A stretch of 64,000 bases of DNA from Sporopachydermia quercuum (taxonomy: Eukaryota). Where the stretch lies: assembly GCA_001599295.1 (NCBI GenBank), contig BCGN01000008.1:248001-312000 (forward strand), written 5' to 3'. Of the stretch, positions 4,446 through 53,964 are shown piece by piece; positions within the stretch are counted from its first letter, which is position 1, and every line of letters begins with the position of its first letter. Below the pieces are notes generated by a model. That model made no database searches. It saw only the letters and a program-made list of their open reading frames with translations, and was not told the DNA's origin. The position numbers were made by a program, and so were the translations under genes.

Positions 4446-4539
4446 GCCCGCGTAGCGTAATGGTTAACGCGTCAGACTTCTAACGAAGCCTCTTTGGAAT
4501 GCAATCTGAAGATTGTGGGTTCGACTCCCACCGTGGGTG
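4446..4539 (+). tRNA. tRNA-Arg(UCU) with 21-nt intron (4483-4503)
   Basis: Acceptor stem GCCCGCG/CGTGGGT, anticodon stem TCAGA/TCTGA with TCT at 4479-4481, T-loop GGTTCGACTCC, and a downstream T6 Pol III terminator. Very similar to yeast tRNA-Arg(UCU). Confidence 0.95.
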
Positions 4540-5988
4540 CTAAGTTTTTTAAACATATGTTTTTTCCAGCAAATGACCCTTCAAGTATAAGTAATGATTA
4601 AATTAAAAAGAGGTATCGTCATTTCTGCTTTAGTCTTCGATTTTTTTCTTGCAATAAGAGATATAGAATGTATCGCAACATGCTGGTATTATAAAAGGAT
4701 CAGCAGGGCATATAGTTCGATTGAGGTGTCATTTATAACGATCCTTCTCCTGAGTATTATTCAGTGGTTTGTACATCAATCATACAAAAGTGCAATACTG
4801 CACTCTTTAATATCGAAGTTCCAGATAGTAAAGTATCATTTTGAAGTGTTGAACTACTGTACCGGAATATCACCACGAAAGGAAGGCTATGACCGACATA
4901 TATGGTGTCATCGAAAGAATCCGCGATCTATTAATCAATCCTGTTACCAATGCTCCAAATAATTTAATAATACATTCAATGCCCATTGCTTACATGAATT
5001 CTGCGGTATCAAACTATTAGCTGGTAAGAGCTAGTAAACTGGTATCAACTTGTCGCAATATAAAGAAACGCAATGAATCAAAGAACAACAAACACGGGTA
5101 TGAATCCCATGAGGGGAGTTATTCAATCATTCCTTACTCTTAAACAAATTCTTCTATCCTATTTCAACCTCTTAACACTCAATCAACTACCAGTATTATT
5201 TTGGATTCCACAATATGCAAAGAACCATTCAATTGCTACGTTGAAAGTAACTGCCAGATGTAAGGCTAAAAGTGGATGCGTTGTTATTCCACTGACTTGT
5301 GTTTGTAATGTCCACGGAAGGGAGATGAGAAAAGTTGCAATCTCTGTTCCGTCCATTTTTACGTACACCGCAATTGTCCCTTAGTTATTTGTTTTGTTGG
5401 TACATCTAACTATGAAGACAATGTAATAACAATTGAATAAAATAGTCCTAATTAGTAGTCTGAAAATATTTCCGTTTGCCCATCATTAATCCGGTAAATA
5501 TCTTCAGTAAATTCTCACTCATGAATGAAGAAATAGTCAGTTTTTCTTCCTCAAAAGAGCAATTCTTATTGGACATCTACTCTTCTATTCATTGCATGTT
5601 CATGCATCATACTTACATATCAAAACTAGTAGTTATCACATAATCTAAAACGAATTTTACACCTCATTCATTATCCTGAAGTTGTACTAGAAGCAATCGC
5701 ATTTGTTCAATGCAAGAAAGATAATTCACCAAAGTTTTACTTCCTGCGATTTGATGCTTTCATTATAAGTTTACTCTTTTTTGATTTCAAGACTGAATCT
5801 ATCATTAGTGGGAAGTTGTACATAATTTTAAAGATATTTGCTTTCACTCTTTTTTTTAGAAGCGCGTTTGATTGGGGTTCATCAAGTAGAAGGATCAATT
5901 GACAATATAGGTGGACACATTGCAGAAAGAGGTCGACATCATTTGGGAAAAGAAAAAGTTACTCATACTCCTGTATTAGAACATAAAG

Positions 5989-12037: not shown

Positions 12038-13381
12038 TCATTCATGGAAATTGATCACATCCTCGTCATTTTCATCGTCCCATTTTCCTTCTCCTTCCCT
12101 TTCCTCTATGCCATCATTACTTTCATTGTCATAGCTGTCTTCCCATTCTTCATGTTCAGCATCAAATGCACGCCAGGTTCGTCTCAAGTCATACAAGAAA
12201 TGACGGAATCTATCTGTAGGTAATACTCCTGCTGCATATATGAATTTAGTATGCAGAGAATCGGAAATAATGGGCGAATCTGCTAATGCAAATGCACTTT
12301 TCCGGGTCTCTTCAACCTGTTGTCCCCCATTTTGCTCCCAAGGAAGATATTTTGCATTTATGCTGAGAAATCGATGGATCAAGTTACTTGTGCTTGTTAC
12401 TAATTGGTTTGTCAAAGTTAGTTCCTGCTGTGAGTAGGTATAATCTTCATTAACATCAATATCAGCAGCCCAATCAAAACCAGTAGGAAATTCAGGCTGT
12501 AAAACTGAATTGAAACCTGGAATTCCAAACTGCGGATTTAATATATCAGGGGTATAAAGATATGGTATCGCTTGAATTATTGTAGTTAACATATGCTTTC
12601 TAATAACAAACTGTTTAGAAATATCATCAGCTAGTAGGGGTATCAAAGGTCTAGATGATGTTGGATCACAAGTGGCATTATTTAGTAATAAAAGATTGCT
12701 TAGGTCTGGATTTGATTCGTCAGTTGGACGAAAAAGAGTTGAGTCACTGACCCTGCAATCAAATATTCCACCGACAAATGAATAAGGAATGTATATAGCC
12801 ATTTCTCGCGATGCATATTTCTTTCTTCTAGCCAGCTTATAGCATTTAAAACCAGAGTTTGTTAGTTGGGTATCATTATCACTGTTATTATTATATCTAC
12901 TGATATTGTTCTCATTGGTTGCACCGCTGATCTGAACTTTTCTCCCAAATGATAAATGCTGAACACTTGATATGGCACCTTTAGTTATTCTATTGAAAAA
13001 CGATATAGATTCATTAGTCCGTTTATCTTCAGTATAACTATCCATGAAAACATTAAGTCCGCTTTTTCGTTTGTTCATAGTCTTCATACAATACACTTTA
13101 CTCCAATCAATATCAACGTTTCTATCGACTGGTTCAACTTGTTCATAGTCAACTTCACCGTTTGAGCAATGACTCAATGACATCATATGCATTACTGGCA
13201 ACCTCCAGTCTTTCAAACTGTATTGACGATACAGCCTGAATCCTGTATACGGTAACCAACCATTACCAAGAATATCGCAGTATTTATGTTCCTTTTTATA
13301 CCAAGCGCTTTCTACCGTTGATATGTTGATGATTGCGTTGATTAGTGTAATCAGTGCAATCCACAAAGATAACGTGTACAT
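12038..13381 (-). CDS. Secreted Cys-containing protein, YGL138C/Spo77-like (probable spore-wall/sporulation protein)
   Basis: 447-aa ORF with signal peptide and acidic tail. Motifs YCDILGNGWLP, IDWSKVYC and NSGFKCYKLARRKK..YIPYSFVGGIFDCRVS resemble Spo77/YGL138C as I remember them. Convergent with FLC, like FLC3-YGL138C. Confidence 0.6.
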   Translation of the reverse strand: MYTLSLWIALITLINAIINISTVESAWYKKEHKYCDILGNGWLPYTGFRLYRQYSLKDWRLPVMHMMSLSHCSNGEVDYEQVEPVDRNVDIDWSKVYCMKTMNKRKSGLNVFMDSYTEDKRTNESISFFNRITKGAISSVQHLSFGRKVQISGATNENNISRYNNNSDNDTQLTNSGFKCYKLARRKKYASREMAIYIPYSFVGGIFDCRVSDSTLFRPTDESNPDLSNLLLLNNATCDPTSSRPLIPLLADDISKQFVIRKHMLTTIIQAIPYLYTPDILNPQFGIPGFNSVLQPEFPTGFDWAADIDVNEDYTYSQQELTLTNQLVTSTSNLIHRFLSINAKYLPWEQNGGQQVEETRKSAFALADSPIISDSLHTKFIYAAGVLPTDRFRHFLYDLRRTWRAFDAEHEEWEDSYDNESNDGIEEREGEGKWDDENDEDVINFHE

Positions 13382-14376
13382 TCTGACCCATTGACTAAGT
13401 GTTTTAGAGTACTAGAATGACTTAACTTCAAAAGCTCAAATTATCGTCCTTAAACTAGTTGTCTTGATAGTATTTATTTTCTAACCAACCACTCCTGAAA
13501 ATCAGAATTGCAAAACCATAAGACAATAGGAAGAAGAGAAAACTGTTGATAAGACATTAATTTCACAAATCTGATAAGAAAGATAAACATGATTGCAAAC
13601 TATCTTCAGAGGTGCCCCTTTGTAGAAATTTCGGAGAGCATGAGATATTTATGATGAAGGAAATAAAGTATATGAATGTTTGATTAATGATGACTGTTAT
13701 GCAAAAAAGGAAAGTAAATCGTTAAACAATAGTTAGTATTTTGAGTTGTTTTTAGTTATTATCGTATGTAACATTTTATTTCTTCTGTTTAGAGGGTTGA
13801 TAATTGTTCAGATGTATAAGTAATACAATGTTTGATGACAAACTGAGAAATCCTATGGGTGAAAATATACTCTATAGTTTCCGGATCAGAACACTTCGGA
13901 AATAATAAGCATCACTCAGTCAGTTGGGCTTGTTCTCATCTTTTTTATAAATTTTTATAATATATATCACTGTTTATTATCAATAATTATTGAAATATAT
14001 TAGAATAGCTATCAGAAGAGTATCTTTCAATTTATTTTAAAAATTTTAATTGCCTGAGAACTTTGACAGTGCAATGAATAGTTACCTAATTTCAGCAACG
14101 GTCTATCTCTACCATTCTCCAGTATAACTAAAGTTTACAACGATCATTCTTAATAGTACAGTTGCGAGACGTCCAGTTATTGACAATAACGCCCCTTCAG
14201 TATGTATTATTAATCAGTTGTCAGGCCCTTTGTTATGAAAATACTATAAAATGCTAGAGTACCTATCCATCCACAGCAGAATACATGAACCTCCTTTTCT
14301 ATTCATATAAATCATTGAACATCTTAGACTCTATATCAATGAATCGTTCCCGGTGGTAAAATCGTCATATACAGTC

Positions 14377-35984: not shown

Positions 35985-36962
35985 CTAAGTACCGGTTGTA
36001 GGATCCTTCTTCTTTTTTGGTTTTTCTTCAGCTTGTTCAACTATAACATCTGTTAATCCTTTCTCTTCTAACAATTGATTGATCAACTCTTCAACCTCAT
36101 CACCAACATCTCCTTGAATCACAATTTCTTCTTTCTTTTCTACATTCTTTGTCACACTTGCACCAGTAGCAAATTTACCAGCGTATTGCTTAGCCAGCTT
36201 CTTCAATTCAACTCCAGTCACTTCCAGACCTGAAATTGAAATTATTTTCTTCCTTTTTGTACGTTCGACTCTCTTGATAACGATTTTTGCCTTTTTCTGT
36301 TTCTGAGACTCCCTAGCATCAACCCTCTCTGCTTTCGCTTGTTGTTTCTGCAAAGATTTTTCAATTTTTTCTTGTTTTGATGTTAAGGTCAAATTAGCAG
36401 TAGCATTAGCAATGGCTTCTGTTGATGGGAAAAAATGAGAGTTAGTAATTGTATGACTCTTTTTTCTGATTCTGTTTCTATAACAATAAGCAAATACGTT
36501 AGCTTTACTCTCATATTCAAAACACTTACCTTCAGAGTATAGTTTATCGAATAGTTTAGGGTAATTTTCTTGTAACCAAGCTTTACATCTTTTGAACGAT
36601 TTAGTACTGAATTCGCAATACTATTTTAATAGATCAGTTAGAAAACTTGAAAATCGGGTTTATTGTCAAACTTCTGGTTAACACCGAGTTCTTCTCCTCA
36701 TCTAAGCTTCCACGAACTCCAACATCCCTTAACACTTACTTCCGGAGGAAATGTGCAAACGCCACAATATAAAATTTCCTTTGCAGGAATCTAGTCAAAA
36801 ATGTTAATCAAATTGTCAAATATTTTATGTACTGAGAATCATAATTCGTCAAGATAGCAATAGAGGATTAGACTATACCTAACAAGGCTTCATCGTTATC
36901 TGAACACAAATATTCATCAAGCCAGTTAGTGAACTTACTGTAAGGGTTTCTATGTCAGCCAT
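35985..36962 (-). CDS. TMA22: Translation machinery-associated protein 22 (DENR); exons 36962-36939, 36790-36740, 36620-36530, 36418-35985 (199 aa)
   Basis: Spliced product MADIETLT-IPAKEILYCGVCTFPPE-YCEF..RCKAWL.. plus SUI1 domain (KFATGASVTK, EIVIQGDV). Three GTAAGT..AG introns keep the frame. Confidence 0.92.
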
Positions 36963-43813: not shown

Positions 43814-45075
43814 TTACTTCACTCTGCTTGATGCATTCTTGATGGATAAAAAGGCATTCCACAAAACACCTACAGATGATGAAAACGGGACCTGAAACCT
43901 TTTTGGCATTACCAAAAAGTTGAAAAACTGAACGGCAGGCCAGAGAGTGTAATTAGCCACCAAAGTTGGTAAATACGCTGTCGTCAATTTATACTTGACT
44001 GCATCTCTATTGCCTCCCTCTAGTATAACAGCGGAGTAGATGAAAAATGTCGCTAATGCTAGTAAATTGTTAGTATTAGTAGTACTATTAGTGTCACAAG
44101 TTTGATCCTTCTTTTTTTTCTTCTTTTATCAACATACAAATAGGAGAGAAACAGAGCTGGTCTGTCAAAACACGTTCAATGGTTGCAATAACTATATTCT
44201 TCTCATCCTCATAAAATTTGTTGAGAATTGAATACCATGGTACTTGAATGAAAGCCATCATGAACCCTATTACGTTTGTTAGATTAAAACAAATCACTCT
44301 GATAATGACATTAAAACTCTTCGTAGTCCGACTACTCTAAAACTTTACTTGAACATACCCCAAACCATAAATCCTGCAAATCTACTCAGATTGAAAGTTG
44401 GTAAATTGTTCTTCCTTCTTCTTGCAATAACATTCTCATCTTCCACTTCTGACATAGCATCATGATCAATGATGGATACATCATCACCGAAATCCATCAG
44501 TGCTTCGTCAGCTAAGTTCGATGGATCCAGACGAATAAAACTTTGCCGCCTTACTGGTTCTTCTAGATCAACACTGTATCTTTCTTTTACCAGTCTTGTC
44601 AATGTCTGTGCCAATGTATCTGCTAATCCAAAAAGTAAAATATTGCTGACAATTACTGTCACTAGTCTGTTACTATGGTATAAATCGTCAAACAAAAATG
44701 ACAACCGCGTAAGAAAACTTGCTTGTGTGATCATAATTGTTAGATTTAGTAATGGAATATGAAGTATTGTAAAATTGAGGAAAAAATGACCGATGCTTTT
44801 GAAGAATGATTTAATTTTGGTAACTATATTTTCAATATTAGTCTCAGCAAACAAAATACAGAATTAGTTTATGAAATTCTTCTCAACCATTACAGCAAAA
44901 AACTCCACATACCGAACCAAAAATCAACATGCGCTTGTGCATCTTGATGCACTTCAATTTCGGACTCATCTATAGAATCAAATGTAAAATTAGCTCCATC
45001 TTCAGTATCAACAACTGGTCTCTGAATCCTTTCGGATTCCGGTGATAGAACGTCTTCACCTGATAAAGATGGCAT
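43814..45075 (-). CDS. Mpv17/PMP22 family membrane protein, YOR292C-like; exons 45075-44913, 44823-44359, 44266-44138, 44058-43814 (333 aa)
   Basis: LFGLADTLAQ, ERVLTDQLCFSP and ANYTLWPAVQFFNF..FQVPFSSSVGVLWNAFLS motifs. Three GTATGT..TAG introns keep the frame. Divergent from RPS10, like YOR292C-RPS10A. Confidence 0.88.
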
Positions 45076-45875
45076 AATATTTGTGTTTCTTGCAAGGCAG
45101 TCAATTTTAATAGTCAACGCAGCACTTTTATAATATGTCCACCTTTTTATCCTGAGGTGACTTTGTGAGACAAGAATAGAACTAACGCAATCATGTCTTG
45201 CAATTGACACAGCAAGTCTCTCTCAAGGATTTTGCCTTCTTCTTCTGCAGGATAAGCGGTTGTCCATATATATTAGAAAAGCTAATCTCCGTTGTCATAC
45301 AATCCTAAAATTCCTGCATGATATTAATATTCTTCAATTCATAATTTGTAATATCTGAGAGTTTTATTCACCAGCTTATGGAAAGAAAATGATGTCGCCT
45401 CTACCCCCTTATCAAAAGCATAAATCATGATGATGCTTATAATAGGAACCTTGTAAATAAAGATAAAACACTTCTTTTTGATAGTGTGATCATTTCGAAA
45501 AGCTGTATAAATACACGTGCTTATCACATGCAGAAAGTTTGGCGTTTTTTAAGAAGTAAGTTGAATTCTGCGTACTTTTGGTCACGCTTTTTTTTCATTT
45601 AATGGGTTTCTCAAATTAATGTATGAAGAAAGTTTCACTATGGATGTAGTAGGAAAGCCAGGATGACGCAGAGAATGGAACTCACACTGACGCTGACTCT
45701 CACTCAGGAAAGTATGCACTCTCAGGTTAGTAATTTAGTATTCACTTGATAATATACCACATACAAGGACTAGGTACAGAGAACTTTCTTGTTGTTCATA
45801 TGATATATTTCGATTACCTTAGTTTTGTATCCGACAAGAACATAAGATAGAAGAGCCAAGATCAAACAGTTCAGT

Positions 45876-46614
45876 ATGCTTATTCCCAAAGAAGACAGAA
45901 AGAAGATTCACGAATACCTCTTCCAAGGTATGTTTAGCTTGAGAATGGTTTGAAACTTGAACGACCATCGGAGCAAGTGCTATTGAATCAAGGATATAGG
46001 TAGTATATCAACCAGTCCAACAGGTTAATCAAAGACGAAAGAGATGGAACTGATTAACAGATTGCTATACAATTGACAACATGTTGAAATGAGCCAGTGG
46101 AGGATCAGATTAACCAACGAGATGGTGATTGGGTTATATTTGATGTGATGATCCTGAGTAGGAAGATAATTTTCTATGTAACAGCAAACAGAGGATTGAT
46201 GGGATTCAATAACAGGCTCGACTATTTTGATTATGGAAATGGTTATTTCGGTGTTCAGAGTTATCTAGTTGTAGAATACTAACTTTTCTTTCTAGAGGGT
46301 GTTCTCGTCGCCAAGAAGGACTACAACCAACCTAAGCACGAAGAAATTGACACCAAGAACTTATATGTATGTAAATTTTATGAATTTCTAGTACTTAGTG
46401 ATCAGCTTGTCTAACGTTTCTATAGGTTATCAAGGCACTTCAATCTTTGACCTCCAAGGGATATGTTAAGACTCAATTTTCTTGGCAATATTATTACTAC
46501 ACCTTGACAGACGAAGGTGTTGACTATCTCAGAGAATGGTTACACGTCCCTGAAGGAGTTGTCCCTGCTACCAGATTAAGAAAGGCCGCTAACCCAAGAG
46601 CTGAAAGAGCTTAA
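45876..46614 (+). CDS. RPS10: 40S ribosomal protein S10 (eS10); exons 45876-45927, 46296-46366, 46426-46614 (103 aa)
   Basis: MLIPKEDRKKIHEYLFQEGVLVAKKDYNQPKHEEIDTKNLYVIKALQSLTSKGYVKTQFSWQYYYYTLT. Absent from the ORF track because of two introns. Confidence 0.97.
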
Positions 46615-46983
46615 GAGTGATGTGAGCTAATTTACTATCACAAAAATCATGTATTAATAAATACAGAACATTCAAATATTAACATCGTCACGTTTGAGGC
46701 GTAGATTCGGAACGAACTCCAACATCCCCGATCGTTGTCGCATTATCACAGCCGTGCTAATACTAGTTCTTATAAATTCCTAAACAGAGATACGATTTCT
46801 CGCTGCCAGCTATTCTTCCGAAAAACGTATGCTTTTGAAAGGACATGTATTATACGGAACTGCTAATATTTCTATCTCTCATTATCGTCAAATCACACGT
46901 TTTTGATTCTTTAACGCTTCGATTCTGAATACCGCTTTTTGATTCTGAGTTCCAGTTCATATTGATAATCTTTCATTTTCAAG

Positions 46984-47256
46984 GTATGTGAAGTTGCTCC
47001 AATTTCATTGTTGAGCTAGAATTATTATCTAGTACTGATGAAATAGAGCTTGAATCCATCTTCCCATTAATCTCGTAAAAGAAATGAATAATCATCACTC
47101 ACAATTCCAACTTAACTTCTCCTAATAGATAGTTAATTTTCTTCATTTCACCGTCTAGACTTTTCAAATCGTAGCATACCTGCATCTCGTACATGAGTTT
47201 TGCCTACTAGCTACCGTTCCTGACTTACTAACTTACTTTTTCTTTTTTGATTCCAG
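46984..47256 (+). ncRNA. Orphan spliceosomal intron in an apparently non-coding transcript; candidate box C/D snoRNA (about 47030-47230)
   Basis: GTATGT donor at 46984, TACTAAC at 47226, pyrimidine tract and CAGCAG acceptor. No ORF crosses the junction. TGATGA at 47036 and CTGA at 47220. Confidence 0.4.
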
Positions 47257-47753
47257 CAGCATGAGAAAATGTATATTACCCCAGTTACTCTACCTCCCTA
47301 ATTCAATAAACTTAGATATTAAATCTTTATCACTTGCTTATTCTATCCATTTATAGGTCTATATTGTGTTCGAGGCCTCTATTTATATAAGTTCAAATCT
47401 CATCTCACGTAAGCATATTACTGTGGTCTATTGTTAAATTTGATAATTACATGTACCATGCAGCTATTGAATTAGGCATTCAAATTGTATTATTTCGTTA
47501 TCAACTGCTAGCAGACAATTGTGAGAGGAATAACAACAATTAGATAGTTGATGGTCAAATGCAGGACAGTCGATCGAGGATAAAAATCAACAGCCATAAA
47601 TTTGAGGAAGAATTGTTTGACGATAAGTCTTGATTCTGATCATAACGCAGCATTATTGATTGAAGATAGATAGGATTGTGCAAATATACGCCTTTCACGA
47701 CAAGGGATAAATAGAAACCGGATATTTAACCAAAGAAGAATTTTGTAGCGACA

Positions 47754-49266
47754 ATGGATGATTTAAAGGTACGTAGAATATGGTTTCATTGTTGTTTGGT
47801 GAAATTTCAATATAGCTGAGACATGGTGTCAAACCTTTTGAATATGATTCTAATGAGATTTGAATAGCCTTCTCCTACTCCTTATGAGATGTATTTGTCA
47901 AATGGAGGTCATCCACAACCGTTAGCGAATCAATATTCCCCGGGTGGAACTCATAATGGCATTATACGCTCACAGCGGACAGGAGGGAGCTCTAATAGTG
48001 GTTCCCAACAATATAATTATGGTGCCCAGCAACCGCAGCCAAGTAATCGACAGTACCAACAACCTCAACCCCAAAATCAACCACAACCACAACCACAACC
48101 TCTAGCTCAAGTTCAACCTCAGTTTCAAGCGCAAATGCAAGATCAACCACAGTCAAGCAGCATACAGTATCAACCGCAACCAGTACAAGCACAGATGCAA
48201 TATGCTCAACCAACCAATCGGCAGTATCAGCAATCACAGCCAAATTTAAAACCACAAGGCAGTAGAACAAGTTCCCTCGGGCGATCACCAACGGGAGCAC
48301 CAGCTAATATCGGCAATCATATAGTGAACAATCCAACGGGTGGTAACCAGGGATGGCCTCAACAAAGCAGCCAGCGACAGGCATCTGGATATCAACAGCA
48401 GCCACAGCAGCACCAACAACAATCTCAATCAAACGTTACATATGGCGGACATACGCCATCTCCAGTTCAGTCCTCACAAGTGAGTAGACGAGGTGCAGGA
48501 GAAGGTACTGCTATTGATTATCGCCAATTGTTTATGAGAGCTGACAGCAATTGTAAGTCTTACTTTCTTTTAAGATATCCTTTAATACATTATTGAAAGC
48601 TGTGTTAACTAACAATTATTTATAGCATCTGGAAGATTATCCGAACTTGAACTCTCGAGAGCGTTAAAGAACAATGATCATTCAAGTTTCAGTGTGACTT
48701 GCGTCCGATTGATGATTAGGTATGTACTTTGCCTAGCAACGATATATTCGCGTATACTTGGGGTTTCTTTTTGTTTGGTGACAGTTGAAGAGCTGTTAAA
48801 CTAACTGAGTATTTTGTAGACTATTTGATGTTGATGGCAATGGAAGTATAGGTTACAATGAATTTGGTAAGTGGCAAAACTGATAGATGAATCAGCAAAT
48901 TCAATATCTATATGTACTAACTATTCAACCTTTTCAGTGAAACTAGTAGATTATATCGAAGGAATGAGATCCACTTTTGATGGTGCGGACAGTGATGGAA
49001 GTGGCACTATATCATACAAAGAATTTAGTACTGCTCTCAAACTATTCGGCTATCGAATCTCAGAAAATACCACCAGGCATATGTTCAATCTTTTTGCTAT
49101 ATGTGATCAACGTGGTGAGAAAGTATTACGATTCGATGGTTTTGTTGAATGTCTTGTGATGCTCATGAGGGGCGTGAGTAATTTCAAGAAGTACGATCAT
49201 AACCTCAATGGCTTTGCTACAATTCCGTTTGAAGATTTTATAAGAATCATACTGGAATATCGCTAA
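47754..49266 (+). CDS. PEF1: Penta-EF-hand protein (peflin/Pef1) with Q/P-rich N-terminus; exons 47754-47768, 47868-48552, 48626-48719, 48820-48866, 48938-49266 (389 aa)
   Basis: EF-hands LFMRADSNSSGRLSELEL, LFDVDGNGSIGYNEF and FDGADSDGSGTISYKEF. Four GT-AG introns join the two ORF-track fragments in frame. Confidence 0.88.
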
Positions 49267-49586
49267 TTATCACTTGCTCCTCTTTGCTTTCTCAATTCAA
49301 TTTTGTGAATTATAATTATAATATCAATGGCATTTCTTCTATCCCTTACGAAGACTTTATAAGAGTCACACTGGAATATCATTAATCATTAGTTGTTCAT
49401 CTCTTTTTTTTTTCAATCTCATTTTGCCTTTGTTTATTAATATTCAGTTTTTTATTTTTTTATTTTTTTTTATTGTTCTTTTTGAGAAGACGAAGACAAA
49501 TCTGTTTGAAAATATGTTTGATTTTGTTCAAAAGAAAAAGAATTAGCACTTAATCGTATCTATTCTATGTAATAATATTACAATCC

Positions 49587-52305: not shown

Positions 52306-53964
52306 CTACCGATAAGATTTAGTATTCAAAACATGAGAAAGAGGATAATTGTTGATGACATGATTCTGCCTACTTGAAATACCCATTGCTGCAAGATCTT
52401 GTTCTATCTCATCGTGACTTGCTGGCCTGATATCTGGAGCAGCAGGAAAACCTGCAGTATTCTTGATCCCTACTTCAATTGATATCTCCTGATTCAACAT
52501 TGACCTTTGTTCCAGTTGTCGACCTTTATCGTCAGATACCCAGAATCCGTATTCAGGGACCAAAGAGTCCATTGCCCTTCGTTCTCTATTAACTTTATAC
52601 CACTCTTGAGTCGTATCATGCAACAAACAGCTCCTAACATCGCACTGGTCTTTGAGAAACTGTTGGTGAATCTGTGATCTTTGAGCCTTAGTCTGGTTTT
52701 CTATACATTGCATTGTATATCTTTTACTTTGTACAGCAATTCTTACCCGCTCTTCACGATGTTTATCAATCTGCTCGTAAAGAGGAAGAAGATCAGGATG
52801 TGTTCCATCAACACACATCTTCATTTCAGCTTCAAGTTTTCTCATTCTATCTTCGTATAAAACATCCCTCAATTTAGCAAACTCAATTTCTACTTGTGTC
52901 AAAGCTTCCAGAGCTTCTTTACGCACTTGTTGATGCTTTTCTCCTTCAAACTTCTTCAACGATGTCGTTTCGTCATCATCTTCGTTGTCAGAAAACTCTT
53001 TTTCCTCTTCATTGACAGAATTATCATTATCTCTTACCCTATCTTGATCGATATAAAGATCACCCAGTGCTTCAGCTTGCGTCGTACTGTTACTATCTTC
53101 AAAGTTATCATGTGTATCTTTTTCTTCATCATCTTTGTCTTTATTAGTATCATCTATAGAAGGCTTATGTTGCTCATTAGATATTTTATCTTCTGAAACG
53201 TCTTTATCTATATCTGCGATGACTTTGACTTCGGATTTGGGCTTTTCGTCGCGAATTGGAGACTTATCAGCACCATTATTTGACGCGATGATCCCTTCTT
53301 TAGTGGTCGCTTTCTTAGAAGACTCTTCTTTTGTAGAATCCGCGATCTGACCTATACTTTCAGCAGATGGCTTTTTGTCACAAGATTGGTTTCTTTCACT
53401 ATCGGCATAGTCTTTAGCATCGTCCACATCCTCCTTCTTGGTGGTCAGATTATCAGTAGATGGCTTATCAGGATTAGCTCCTTCACTTGAAATTGATTCA
53501 ACTTTACGACGTTTTTTCTCATCTCCAGAAATGGCTTGATGGTTTTCATCGTTTTCTTCATCAGAAGTAGCACGCCTCTTCTTAGAGTATAATTTATCTG
53601 TTTCAGCCACATCAACTGAATTTGAAGAATCCGCAGTAATAGAAGTCTTATCTGGTTCATCATCATTGGGCTCTAGAGTAACATCACCATCAATATCACC
53701 ATTATTTGTGACATCTTCATCAGAAGGAGGTTCCGAGACTTCTTTCAGTCTTTCGAGCTCAGTAATATCAGGCATTTCAATTCTTTCAGTTTCAGCTTCA
53801 GATTCTAACTCGCTTAATTCAGACGACATTGAATCCTCTAATAGGTTATTATGCTGTGGTAACGGTGATTCCTTTGACTTTTCTCTATCATCCAATTGTT
53901 TATTAGGGGATTGCGGAGAGAAATCTAGCTCTGATAATGGTGAGGTTGGTCTATCCACGTCCAT
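52306..53964 (-). CDS. DEP1: Rpd3L histone deacetylase complex subunit Dep1 (Sds3-like domain)
   Basis: SSELSELESEAETER motif, acidic linker and Sds3-like domain (EIEFAKLRDVLY..DGTHP..WYKVNRERR..GFPAAP). Confidence 0.85.
   Translation of the reverse strand: MDVDRPTSPLSELDFSPQSPNKQLDDREKSKESPLPQHNNLLEDSMSSELSELESEAETERIEMPDITELERLKEVSEPPSDEDVTNNGDIDGDVTLEPNDDEPDKTSITADSSNSVDVAETDKLYSKKRRATSDEENDENHQAISGDEKKRRKVESISSEGANPDKPSTDNLTTKKEDVDDAKDYADSERNQSCDKKPSAESIGQIADSTKEESSKKATTKEGIIASNNGADKSPIRDEKPKSEVKVIADIDKDVSEDKISNEQHKPSIDDTNKDKDDEEKDTHDNFEDSNSTTQAEALGDLYIDQDRVRDNDNSVNEEEKEFSDNEDDDETTSLKKFEGEKHQQVRKEALEALTQVEIEFAKLRDVLYEDRMRKLEAEMKMCVDGTHPDLLPLYEQIDKHREERVRIAVQSKRYTMQCIENQTKAQRSQIHQQFLKDQCDVRSCLLHDTTQEWYKVNRERRAMDSLVPEYGFWVSDDKGRQLEQRSMLNQEISIEVGIKNTAGFPAAPDIRPASHDEIEQDLAAMGISSRQNHVINNYPLSHVLNTKSYR

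Follow-up and report, generated by a model that had tools for sequence, protein, structure and literature searches.

Architecture of the RPS10-PEF1 interval

The window, that is the whole stretch of DNA analysed here, comprises 64,000 nt of Sporopachydermia quercuum contig BCGN01000008.1 (assembly GCA_001599295.1; positions 248,001-312,000, forward strand), and within this AT-rich yeast sequence a candidate intron is placed between RPS10 (eS10) and a PEF1-like gene of the penta-EF-hand type. An earlier note on this DNA had named both flanking genes, and the domains detected by Pfam, S10_plectin upstream and EF-hands downstream, bear out the two assignments (Table 1). The predicted PEF1 protein opens with MDDL, as it does in locus L004, one of three loci with the same gene order that are compared below. 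The spacer between the two genes measures 1139 nt, or 866 nt once the 273-nt candidate intron is subtracted. From the 19 coding introns counted in the earlier note, the sizes of the six that interrupt RPS10 and PEF1 were checked and are listed in Table 1.

Table 1. Features of the RPS10-PEF1 interval (window positions; motif and intron assignments by sequence reading)
Feature	Position	Strand	Remarks
RPS10 (eS10), upstream neighbour	45876..46614	+	sequence reading; Pfam S10_plectin E 6e-24 on exon 3
RPS10 exons	45876-45927, 46296-46366, 46426-46614 (incl. stop)	+	
RPS10 introns	45928-46295, 46367-46425	+	368 and 59 nt
TATA-like element TTATAAAT	46770-46777	+	possible promoter of an orphan transcript
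Putative exon 1	46778..46983	+	two short ATG ORFs (46829, 46845)
Putative spliceosomal intron	46984-47256	+	273 nt
Donor GTATGT	46984-46989	+	exon side reads AAG
Box C/D-like span of the earlier note	47030..47232	+	TAGTA 47030-34, C, TGATGA 47036-41 ... CTGA 47220-23, CT, TACTA 47226-30
Branch site TACTAAC	47226-47232	+	
Pyrimidine tract	47233-47253	+	C/T at 18/21 positions (86%)
Acceptor CAG	47254-47256	+	alternative CAG 47257-47259
Putative exon 2	47257..47400	+	ATG 47261 ORF, CCCTAA 47296, AATAAA 47305, TATATA 47384; poly(A) predicted from motifs
PEF1-like penta-EF-hand gene, downstream neighbour	47754..49266	+	start ATG 47754; EF-hand Pfam E 3e-9; tblastn to L001, L002, L004
PEF1 introns	47769-47867, 48553-48625, 48720-48819, 48867-48937	+	99, 73, 100 and 71 nt

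Splice signals of the candidate intron and their chance rate

Reading of the sequence recovers every motif of the earlier note at the position given there and upholds the intron length of 273 nt. Donor, branch site and acceptor all match the strictest consensus: the donor conforms to GTAWGT, and a YAG follows the branch site within 10-50 nt downstream. The same strict signals are used by RPS10 intron 1, the window's other long intron. The branch adenosine of the candidate lies 25 nt from its acceptor, and a short branch-to-acceptor distance is a feature linked to intron stability. Further upstream, the TATA-like TTATAAAT is preceded by a patch of ~50% G+C (46680-46769).

The chance rate of these signals was estimated with a strict pattern, defined as GTATGT, TACTAAC and YAG in that order within 45-400 nt, and with dinucleotide-preserving shuffles as the null. 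When the spacer was shuffled 5000 times, the pattern appeared in 19 of the shuffles, a rate of 0.4% that applies to this spacer and strand and takes no account of the AAG exon end, the 86% pyrimidine tract or the orientation common to both neighbours. Across the whole window and both strands, six strict matches were observed against 0.4 expected, and the single motifs are found at about chance level (GTATGT 44 times against 44.5 in shuffles; TACTAAC 19 times against 14). One of the six matches is RPS10 intron 1, another pairs PEF1's intron 3 donor with the branch site belonging to intron 4, and two more share one common branch site in a minus-strand gene at 44059-45075, which leaves as orphans the candidate itself and a minus-strand match at 45764-45693. 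The latter, with GTATGT at 45764, TACTAAC at 45732, no pyrimidine tract and AGs straight after the branch site, may represent either chance or a leader intron; since it lacks the tract and is perhaps fortuitous, false positives of the strict pattern do occur. This second orphan falls inside the divergent promoter region of RPS10; the start codon of the minus-strand gene (ATG 45075) is ~620 nt away, with the match on its upstream side.

These figures bear directly on the reading in which there is no intron at all, and in which chance motifs in RPS10 terminator and PEF1 promoter DNA are never, or only incidentally, spliced. The near-chance frequency of GTATGT and TACTAAC taken singly, the ~0.4 strict matches expected per window and the chance-like appearance of the second orphan (45764-45693, minus strand) are all compatible with such a view, as is the lack of conservation in L001, L002 and L004, and the recurrence of the 10-mer CTACCGTTCC (47211) upstream of the L001 PEF1 gene (10742) would fit a promoter element. 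Against this, the full signal set arises by chance at only 0.4% for the spacer and strand, even before exon end, pyrimidine tract and orientation are considered, and we regard the absence of an intron as unlikely on balance. Sequence 46984-47256 is, in our estimation, probably a genuinely used intron, and the rarity of the strict signal set, together with the lack of a reading frame across the junction, makes an intron in an untranslated RNA likely.

Coding capacity and predicted transcript ends

The ORF list and sequence reading both agree with the previous claim that no ATG-initiated frame spans the junction (46983/47257). Indeed, the only frame open across it begins after a TGA near 46946 and contains no ATG, and between stop codons no frame of the 1139-nt spacer is longer than 65 aa. 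Putative exon 1 holds just two ATG-initiated ORFs (46829, 25 aa; 46845, 27 aa), both of which stop upstream of the donor, and the 31-codon ORF described after the acceptor is present at 47261-47356. When the 14 small ORFs of the spacer were compared with 80 fungal loci, obtained by scanning metagenome contigs with RPS10 exon 3 (identity at most 80%), no credible relative was found; the best match (tblastn, E 0.013) is out of frame and antisense to RPS10. As for transcript ends, AATAAA is found exactly twice in the spacer, at 46656 after the RPS10 stop and at 47305, 49 nt past the acceptor, and the acceptor is separated from the PEF1 ATG by a stretch that contains six ATGs. In this respect, and on sequence grounds alone, there is support for the proposal of an orphan, non-coding plus-strand intron that has a TATA-like element ahead of it and an AATAAA 49 nt past its acceptor.

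Two other origins for the spacer sequence were considered and set aside. The antisense match at E 0.013 and a likeness of GATTC..GAATACC to exon 1 had prompted a reading of the region as an RPS10 pseudogene or relic intron; it was rejected because the gene scores 78 against the spacer, with 73.8 +/- 10.6 for shuffles, and because the tblastn frames are not in register with that of the coding sequence. A repeat or introner reading was likewise abandoned, as a self-search of 46700-47420 against the window yielded only a 17-mer.

We tentatively favour a model in which 46984-47256 would be a real intron within a separate plus-strand transcript, short and untranslated, and would harbour no snoRNA. 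A start site past the TATA-like element (46770) would open exon 1, which would end at 46983; after removal of the intron, exon 2, beginning at 47257, would be polyadenylated beyond AATAAA 47305 and TATATA 47384. The product would be a spliced RNA of ~200-350 nt with no meaningful ORF; the TGATGA, the CTGA and the 5-bp complement inside the intron would be coincidental. A role can be proposed only speculatively, in the form of upstream non-coding transcription towards the PEF1 promoter that might affect it. The model draws on the strict signals with their AAG exon end and pyrimidine-rich tract, on their rarity in shuffles and on the missing coding frame, and it is also consistent with the AATAAA and TATATA past the acceptor, the six ATGs that precede PEF1 and the TATA-like elements nearer to that gene. 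Speaking against it are the lack of a syntenic counterpart and the existence of a second orphan strict match that may be due to chance, and in AT-rich DNA little weight attaches to poly(A) and TATA motifs.

Alternatively, a real intron could reside in a long PEF1 5' leader that starts after the TATA at 46770 and runs to ATG 47754. The candidate is co-oriented with PEF1 and immediately precedes it, no other gene intervening, PEF1 carries four coding introns here and none in the relatives, and in the fission yeast data described in PMC4138321 intronic snoRNAs are mostly located in UTRs or non-coding genes, which by implication contain many introns. Moreover, the 3' end of PEF1 intron 3 has a look-alike just ahead of the ATG, at 47725-47748 (75% over 24 nt), which hints at a further leader intron, although the sole candidate donor for it is GTAAGC at 47409 and its branch site, TTTAAC, is weak. 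Such a leader would, however, retain ~497 nt with six upstream ATGs after the acceptor and would enclose both AATAAA 47305 and TATATA 47384; TATA-like elements are available closer to the ATG (47384, ~47706), and the PEF1 TATA of the relatives lies at most ~110 nt from the start codon. We consider the leader a rather doubtful alternative, on a par with the absence of an intron. It is motif arguments only that tell the two intron-containing readings apart, and these would slightly favour a transcript of its own.

The box C/D-like span

The earlier note had gone further and proposed that a dedicated non-coding host releases a box C/D-type RNA of ~190-200 nt (47030-47232) from the intron. The span from TGATGA to CTGA is 188 nt and is framed by a 5-bp complement, a combination that shuffles produce 0.42 times per window; the 5' end of the RNA would lie 46 nt from the donor, within the 41-60 nt given for Neurospora intronic snoRNAs in PMC2780460, and the hosts described there and in PMC3596301 show fungal snoRNAs to be common within the introns of non-coding genes with short, ORF-less exons. 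The geometry of the candidate is nevertheless poor. Box C reads cUGAUGA (47035-41), with a C where RUGAUGA has a purine, the TAGTA/TACTA stem is set off from the boxes by unpaired bases, one at its 5' side and two at its 3' side, and sequence reading of the rest of the intron found no further CTGA as a D' box. The 3' arm of the stem (47226-47230) is itself part of the branch site, so that the 5-bp complement exists because the branch site reads TACTA; with box D located a mere 2 nt from the branch site as well, an assembled RNP would mask it and compete with splicing; position reportedly matters in yeast.

Similar patterns are moreover found elsewhere in the window. A search for TGATGA and CTGA 60-250 nt apart with an outer stem of at least 5 bp, its criteria fitted after the fact, retrieved three patterns against 0.42 in shuffles (both strands), and two of the three, equally good, fall within a minus-strand coding ORF (52306-53964). 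Real sequence thus yields C/D-like patterns even where it is coding, and the presence of one in an intron is unremarkable.

Neither family searches nor folding single out the intron. Rfam 15 returned no plus-strand match at E<=10 for 45800-47800 or for the intron alone, with minus-strand noise at E 1-8, and at the gathering threshold the whole window gave only a tRNA. The intron had also been described as containing a structured RNA; its fold energies fall within those of shuffles (z-scores of -0.84 for the intron, -0.44 for a 216-nt C/D span and -0.07 for the minus strand), its G+C content is not raised, and the hairpin GTAGC 47171-47175 / GCTAC 47210-47214 appears in minimum free energy folds without being special. 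With respect to the H/ACA class, there was no Rfam match, and inspection by eye found the folds to lack both an H box (ANANNA) following the 5' hairpin (47002-47046) and an ACA behind a 3' hairpin.

Taken with the rRNA and syntenic comparisons reported below, the C/D-like constellation at 47030-47232 is most likely a product of chance. The claim of a ~190-nt C/D snoRNA is not supported, in view of the missing Rfam family, conserved rRNA complement and syntenic counterpart, the poor geometry and the look-alikes in coding DNA, and we judge a snoRNA host at this locus very unlikely. Still more improbable would be a lineage-specific C/D-like RNA of ~200 nt with no known family or rRNA methylation target, released from a single-intron host and closed by a stem taken from the branch site: since that stem would make RNP assembly and branch recognition mutually exclusive, each transcript could give either the spliced host RNA or the small RNA.

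Complementarity to ribosomal RNA

Candidate guide sequences were compared with an rDNA set assembled by an ITS1 primer scan of prokaryote assemblies, which contains 57 eukaryote-type rDNA loci among the matches listed (137 kb). Ten of these listed loci include the SSU 515 site, 13 the LSU NL4 site and two the sarcin-ricin loop; six look fungal by their ITS1-F site. The set holds little yeast rDNA and covers the 3' LSU thinly (2 loci). The 24 nt before box D pair best over 13 bp with 2 G-U, in one of the 57 listed loci, against 10-15 bp for shuffled guides. Exact complements of any one 10-mer from 47030-47232 are confined to fewer than three of the 57 listed rDNA loci. The stretch ahead of box D, where a guide element of at least 10 nt would be expected, has in these listed loci no conserved partner. 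A positive-control snoRNA was sought in 7 further likely fungal loci and none was found, the 80 fungal RPS10 loci yielded no rDNA, and primer scans of viral contigs produced one odd partial SSU (L081) and one 103-nt LSU start (L083). In passing, the ITS1 primer site, which marks the 18S 3' end, was present in at least 57 contigs (L085-L141) of assemblies labelled bacterial or archaeal, and many of these contigs are short and resemble eukaryotic rDNA contamination.

Comparison with syntenic yeasts

A PEF1 homologue follows RPS10 on the same strand in 3 of the 80 fungal loci, namely L001, L002 and L004, and the persistence of this arrangement indicates that the gene order is old. The spacers of these three loci measure ~690, ~923 and ~669 nt, respectively. 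None of them contains the strict intron pattern, the single relaxed match, a weak one, being confined to L002; none aligns to the window spacer better than shuffles do, whether strictly or with gaps tolerated, and none gave an Rfam match.

The coding genes differ in intron content as well. In L001, L002 and L004, PEF1 is a single ORF of 371-423 aa devoid of all four introns seen in the window, and RPS10 has two introns in the window against one, one and none in the syntenic yeasts, L002 being the locus without any and RPS10 intron 2 being absent from all three. Introns are far more numerous in the window lineage than in the syntenic yeasts. Because the latter are intron-poor and lack the PEF1 introns altogether, the missing orphan intron says little; the absent counterparts would argue weakly against the intron and a little more strongly against a conserved RNA of long standing at this position. 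The length of the window spacer without its 273 nt falls within the range of the relatives, which fits either a lineage-specific intron gain or no intron.

Short identities between the window and L001 were also recorded. The two have four blocks of 10 nt or more in common, three in collinear order, which 36 of 1500 shuffles match as well; among them is a 19-mer, uninterrupted in L001 (10441-10459) but split in the window into 46830-46841 and 46991-47000 (37 of 4000 shuffles), the split being ~150 nt and ending at the 5' splice site. Once three comparisons are corrected for, these collinear identities are not significant. The decamer CTACCGTTCC, at window positions 47211-47220 just before the supposed box D, is identical to L001 10742-10751 in the upstream region of PEF1.

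Relation to known systems

In the hosts described in PMC3596301 and PMC2780460, fungal snoRNAs are common in introns of ORF-poor non-coding transcripts, and host introns of this kind have been accepted there on canonical signals alone. PMC4138321 places most intronic snoRNAs of fission yeast in UTR or non-coding introns, and a count given in PMC8609340 for S. cerevisiae is only eight intronic snoRNAs. The candidate resembles the UHG-like hosts of non-Saccharomyces fungi, as described for the snR72-78, snR57-55-61 and snR41-70-51 clusters, in its short, ORF-poor exons, canonical splice signals and Pol II-type upstream elements. It differs in that the hosts described carry a conserved, recognisable snoRNA per intron and usually several introns, whereas the candidate has one intron and no recognisable snoRNA. 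The architecture is therefore host-like, but the defining feature of a snoRNA host fails.

Other comparisons lead in the same direction. The candidate shares with 5'-UTR introns of yeast coding genes a co-oriented upstream position, a strong consensus and considerable length, and departs from them in the ~497 nt, six ATGs and AATAAA that separate it from the downstream start codon. The long budding-yeast C/D snoRNAs snR190, snR4 and snR45 are ~170-190 nt in size. Like them, the C/D-like span is long and has UGAUGA and CUGA near its ends; unlike them, it has an imperfect k-turn, no plus-strand Rfam family, no conserved rRNA complement in the listed loci, and an overlap with the branch site. A last parallel concerns the linear introns that remain stable after excision in S. 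cerevisiae (bioRxiv 10.1101/426049), to which the candidate is akin as an intron that might matter as RNA. Introns of that class reside in coding genes and have no defining sequence. We conclude that 46984-47256 is most likely a plain intron of an untranslated region or of a non-coding RNA.

If the intron is real, it would add one unannotated pair of untranslated exons, belonging either to a small non-coding gene or to a PEF1 leader, to an intron-rich budding-yeast lineage, and its absence from three intron-poor yeasts with the same gene order would make it a minor entry in the record of how introns are gained and lost. No long-standing question is opened by it, and a new long C/D RNA is unsupported by the tests run. 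For annotation, pairs of TGATGA and CTGA with a short flanking complement belong to the background of AT-rich yeast DNA, coding sequence included, and should not be read as snoRNAs where guide or conservation is lacking.

Other features of the window and of related loci

The 17-mer of the self-search is an exact repeat (46712-46728 and 36712-36728; E 0.011), its copies 10,000 nt apart. The first sits in the G+C-rich patch upstream of the TATA-like element and the second in a multi-intron minus-strand gene, and TCCAAACATCC, which is similar to the repeat, is present in the upstream region of L001 PEF1. The repeat could be a common cis element or a chance occurrence.

Upstream of RPS10 and on the opposite strand, Rfam identifies nuclear RNase P RNA in L001 (8077-8369, minus strand, 87 bits) and L004 (5449-5756, minus strand, 83 bits). 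The window gave no RNase P match at the gathering threshold, and a search of 45050-45880, which covers the 800-nt ORF-free stretch upstream of RPS10 (45076-45875), gave only noise at E<=10. The tRNA detected in the window occupies 4446-4540 on the plus strand (61.6 bits in Rfam, ~94 nt); it probably contains an intron, its anticodon was left unnamed by ARAGORN, and no additional tRNA or pseudo-tRNA was found near the G+C-rich patch. Among the other fungal loci, L005 carries an Afu_309-type sRNA (13483-13755, plus strand, 122 bits) 3.3 kb downstream of RPS10, and L031 a U5 snRNA gene (13375-13488, minus strand).

The RPS10 reading frame of the window ends early and is devoid of the arginine/glycine-rich tail present in L001, L002 and L004. 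PEF1 is duplicated in tandem over its final coding portion and 3' end (49180-49290 against 49299-49409, 73% identity over 111 nt), such that a decayed second copy of the PEF1 C-terminal end sits after the PEF1 stop codon.
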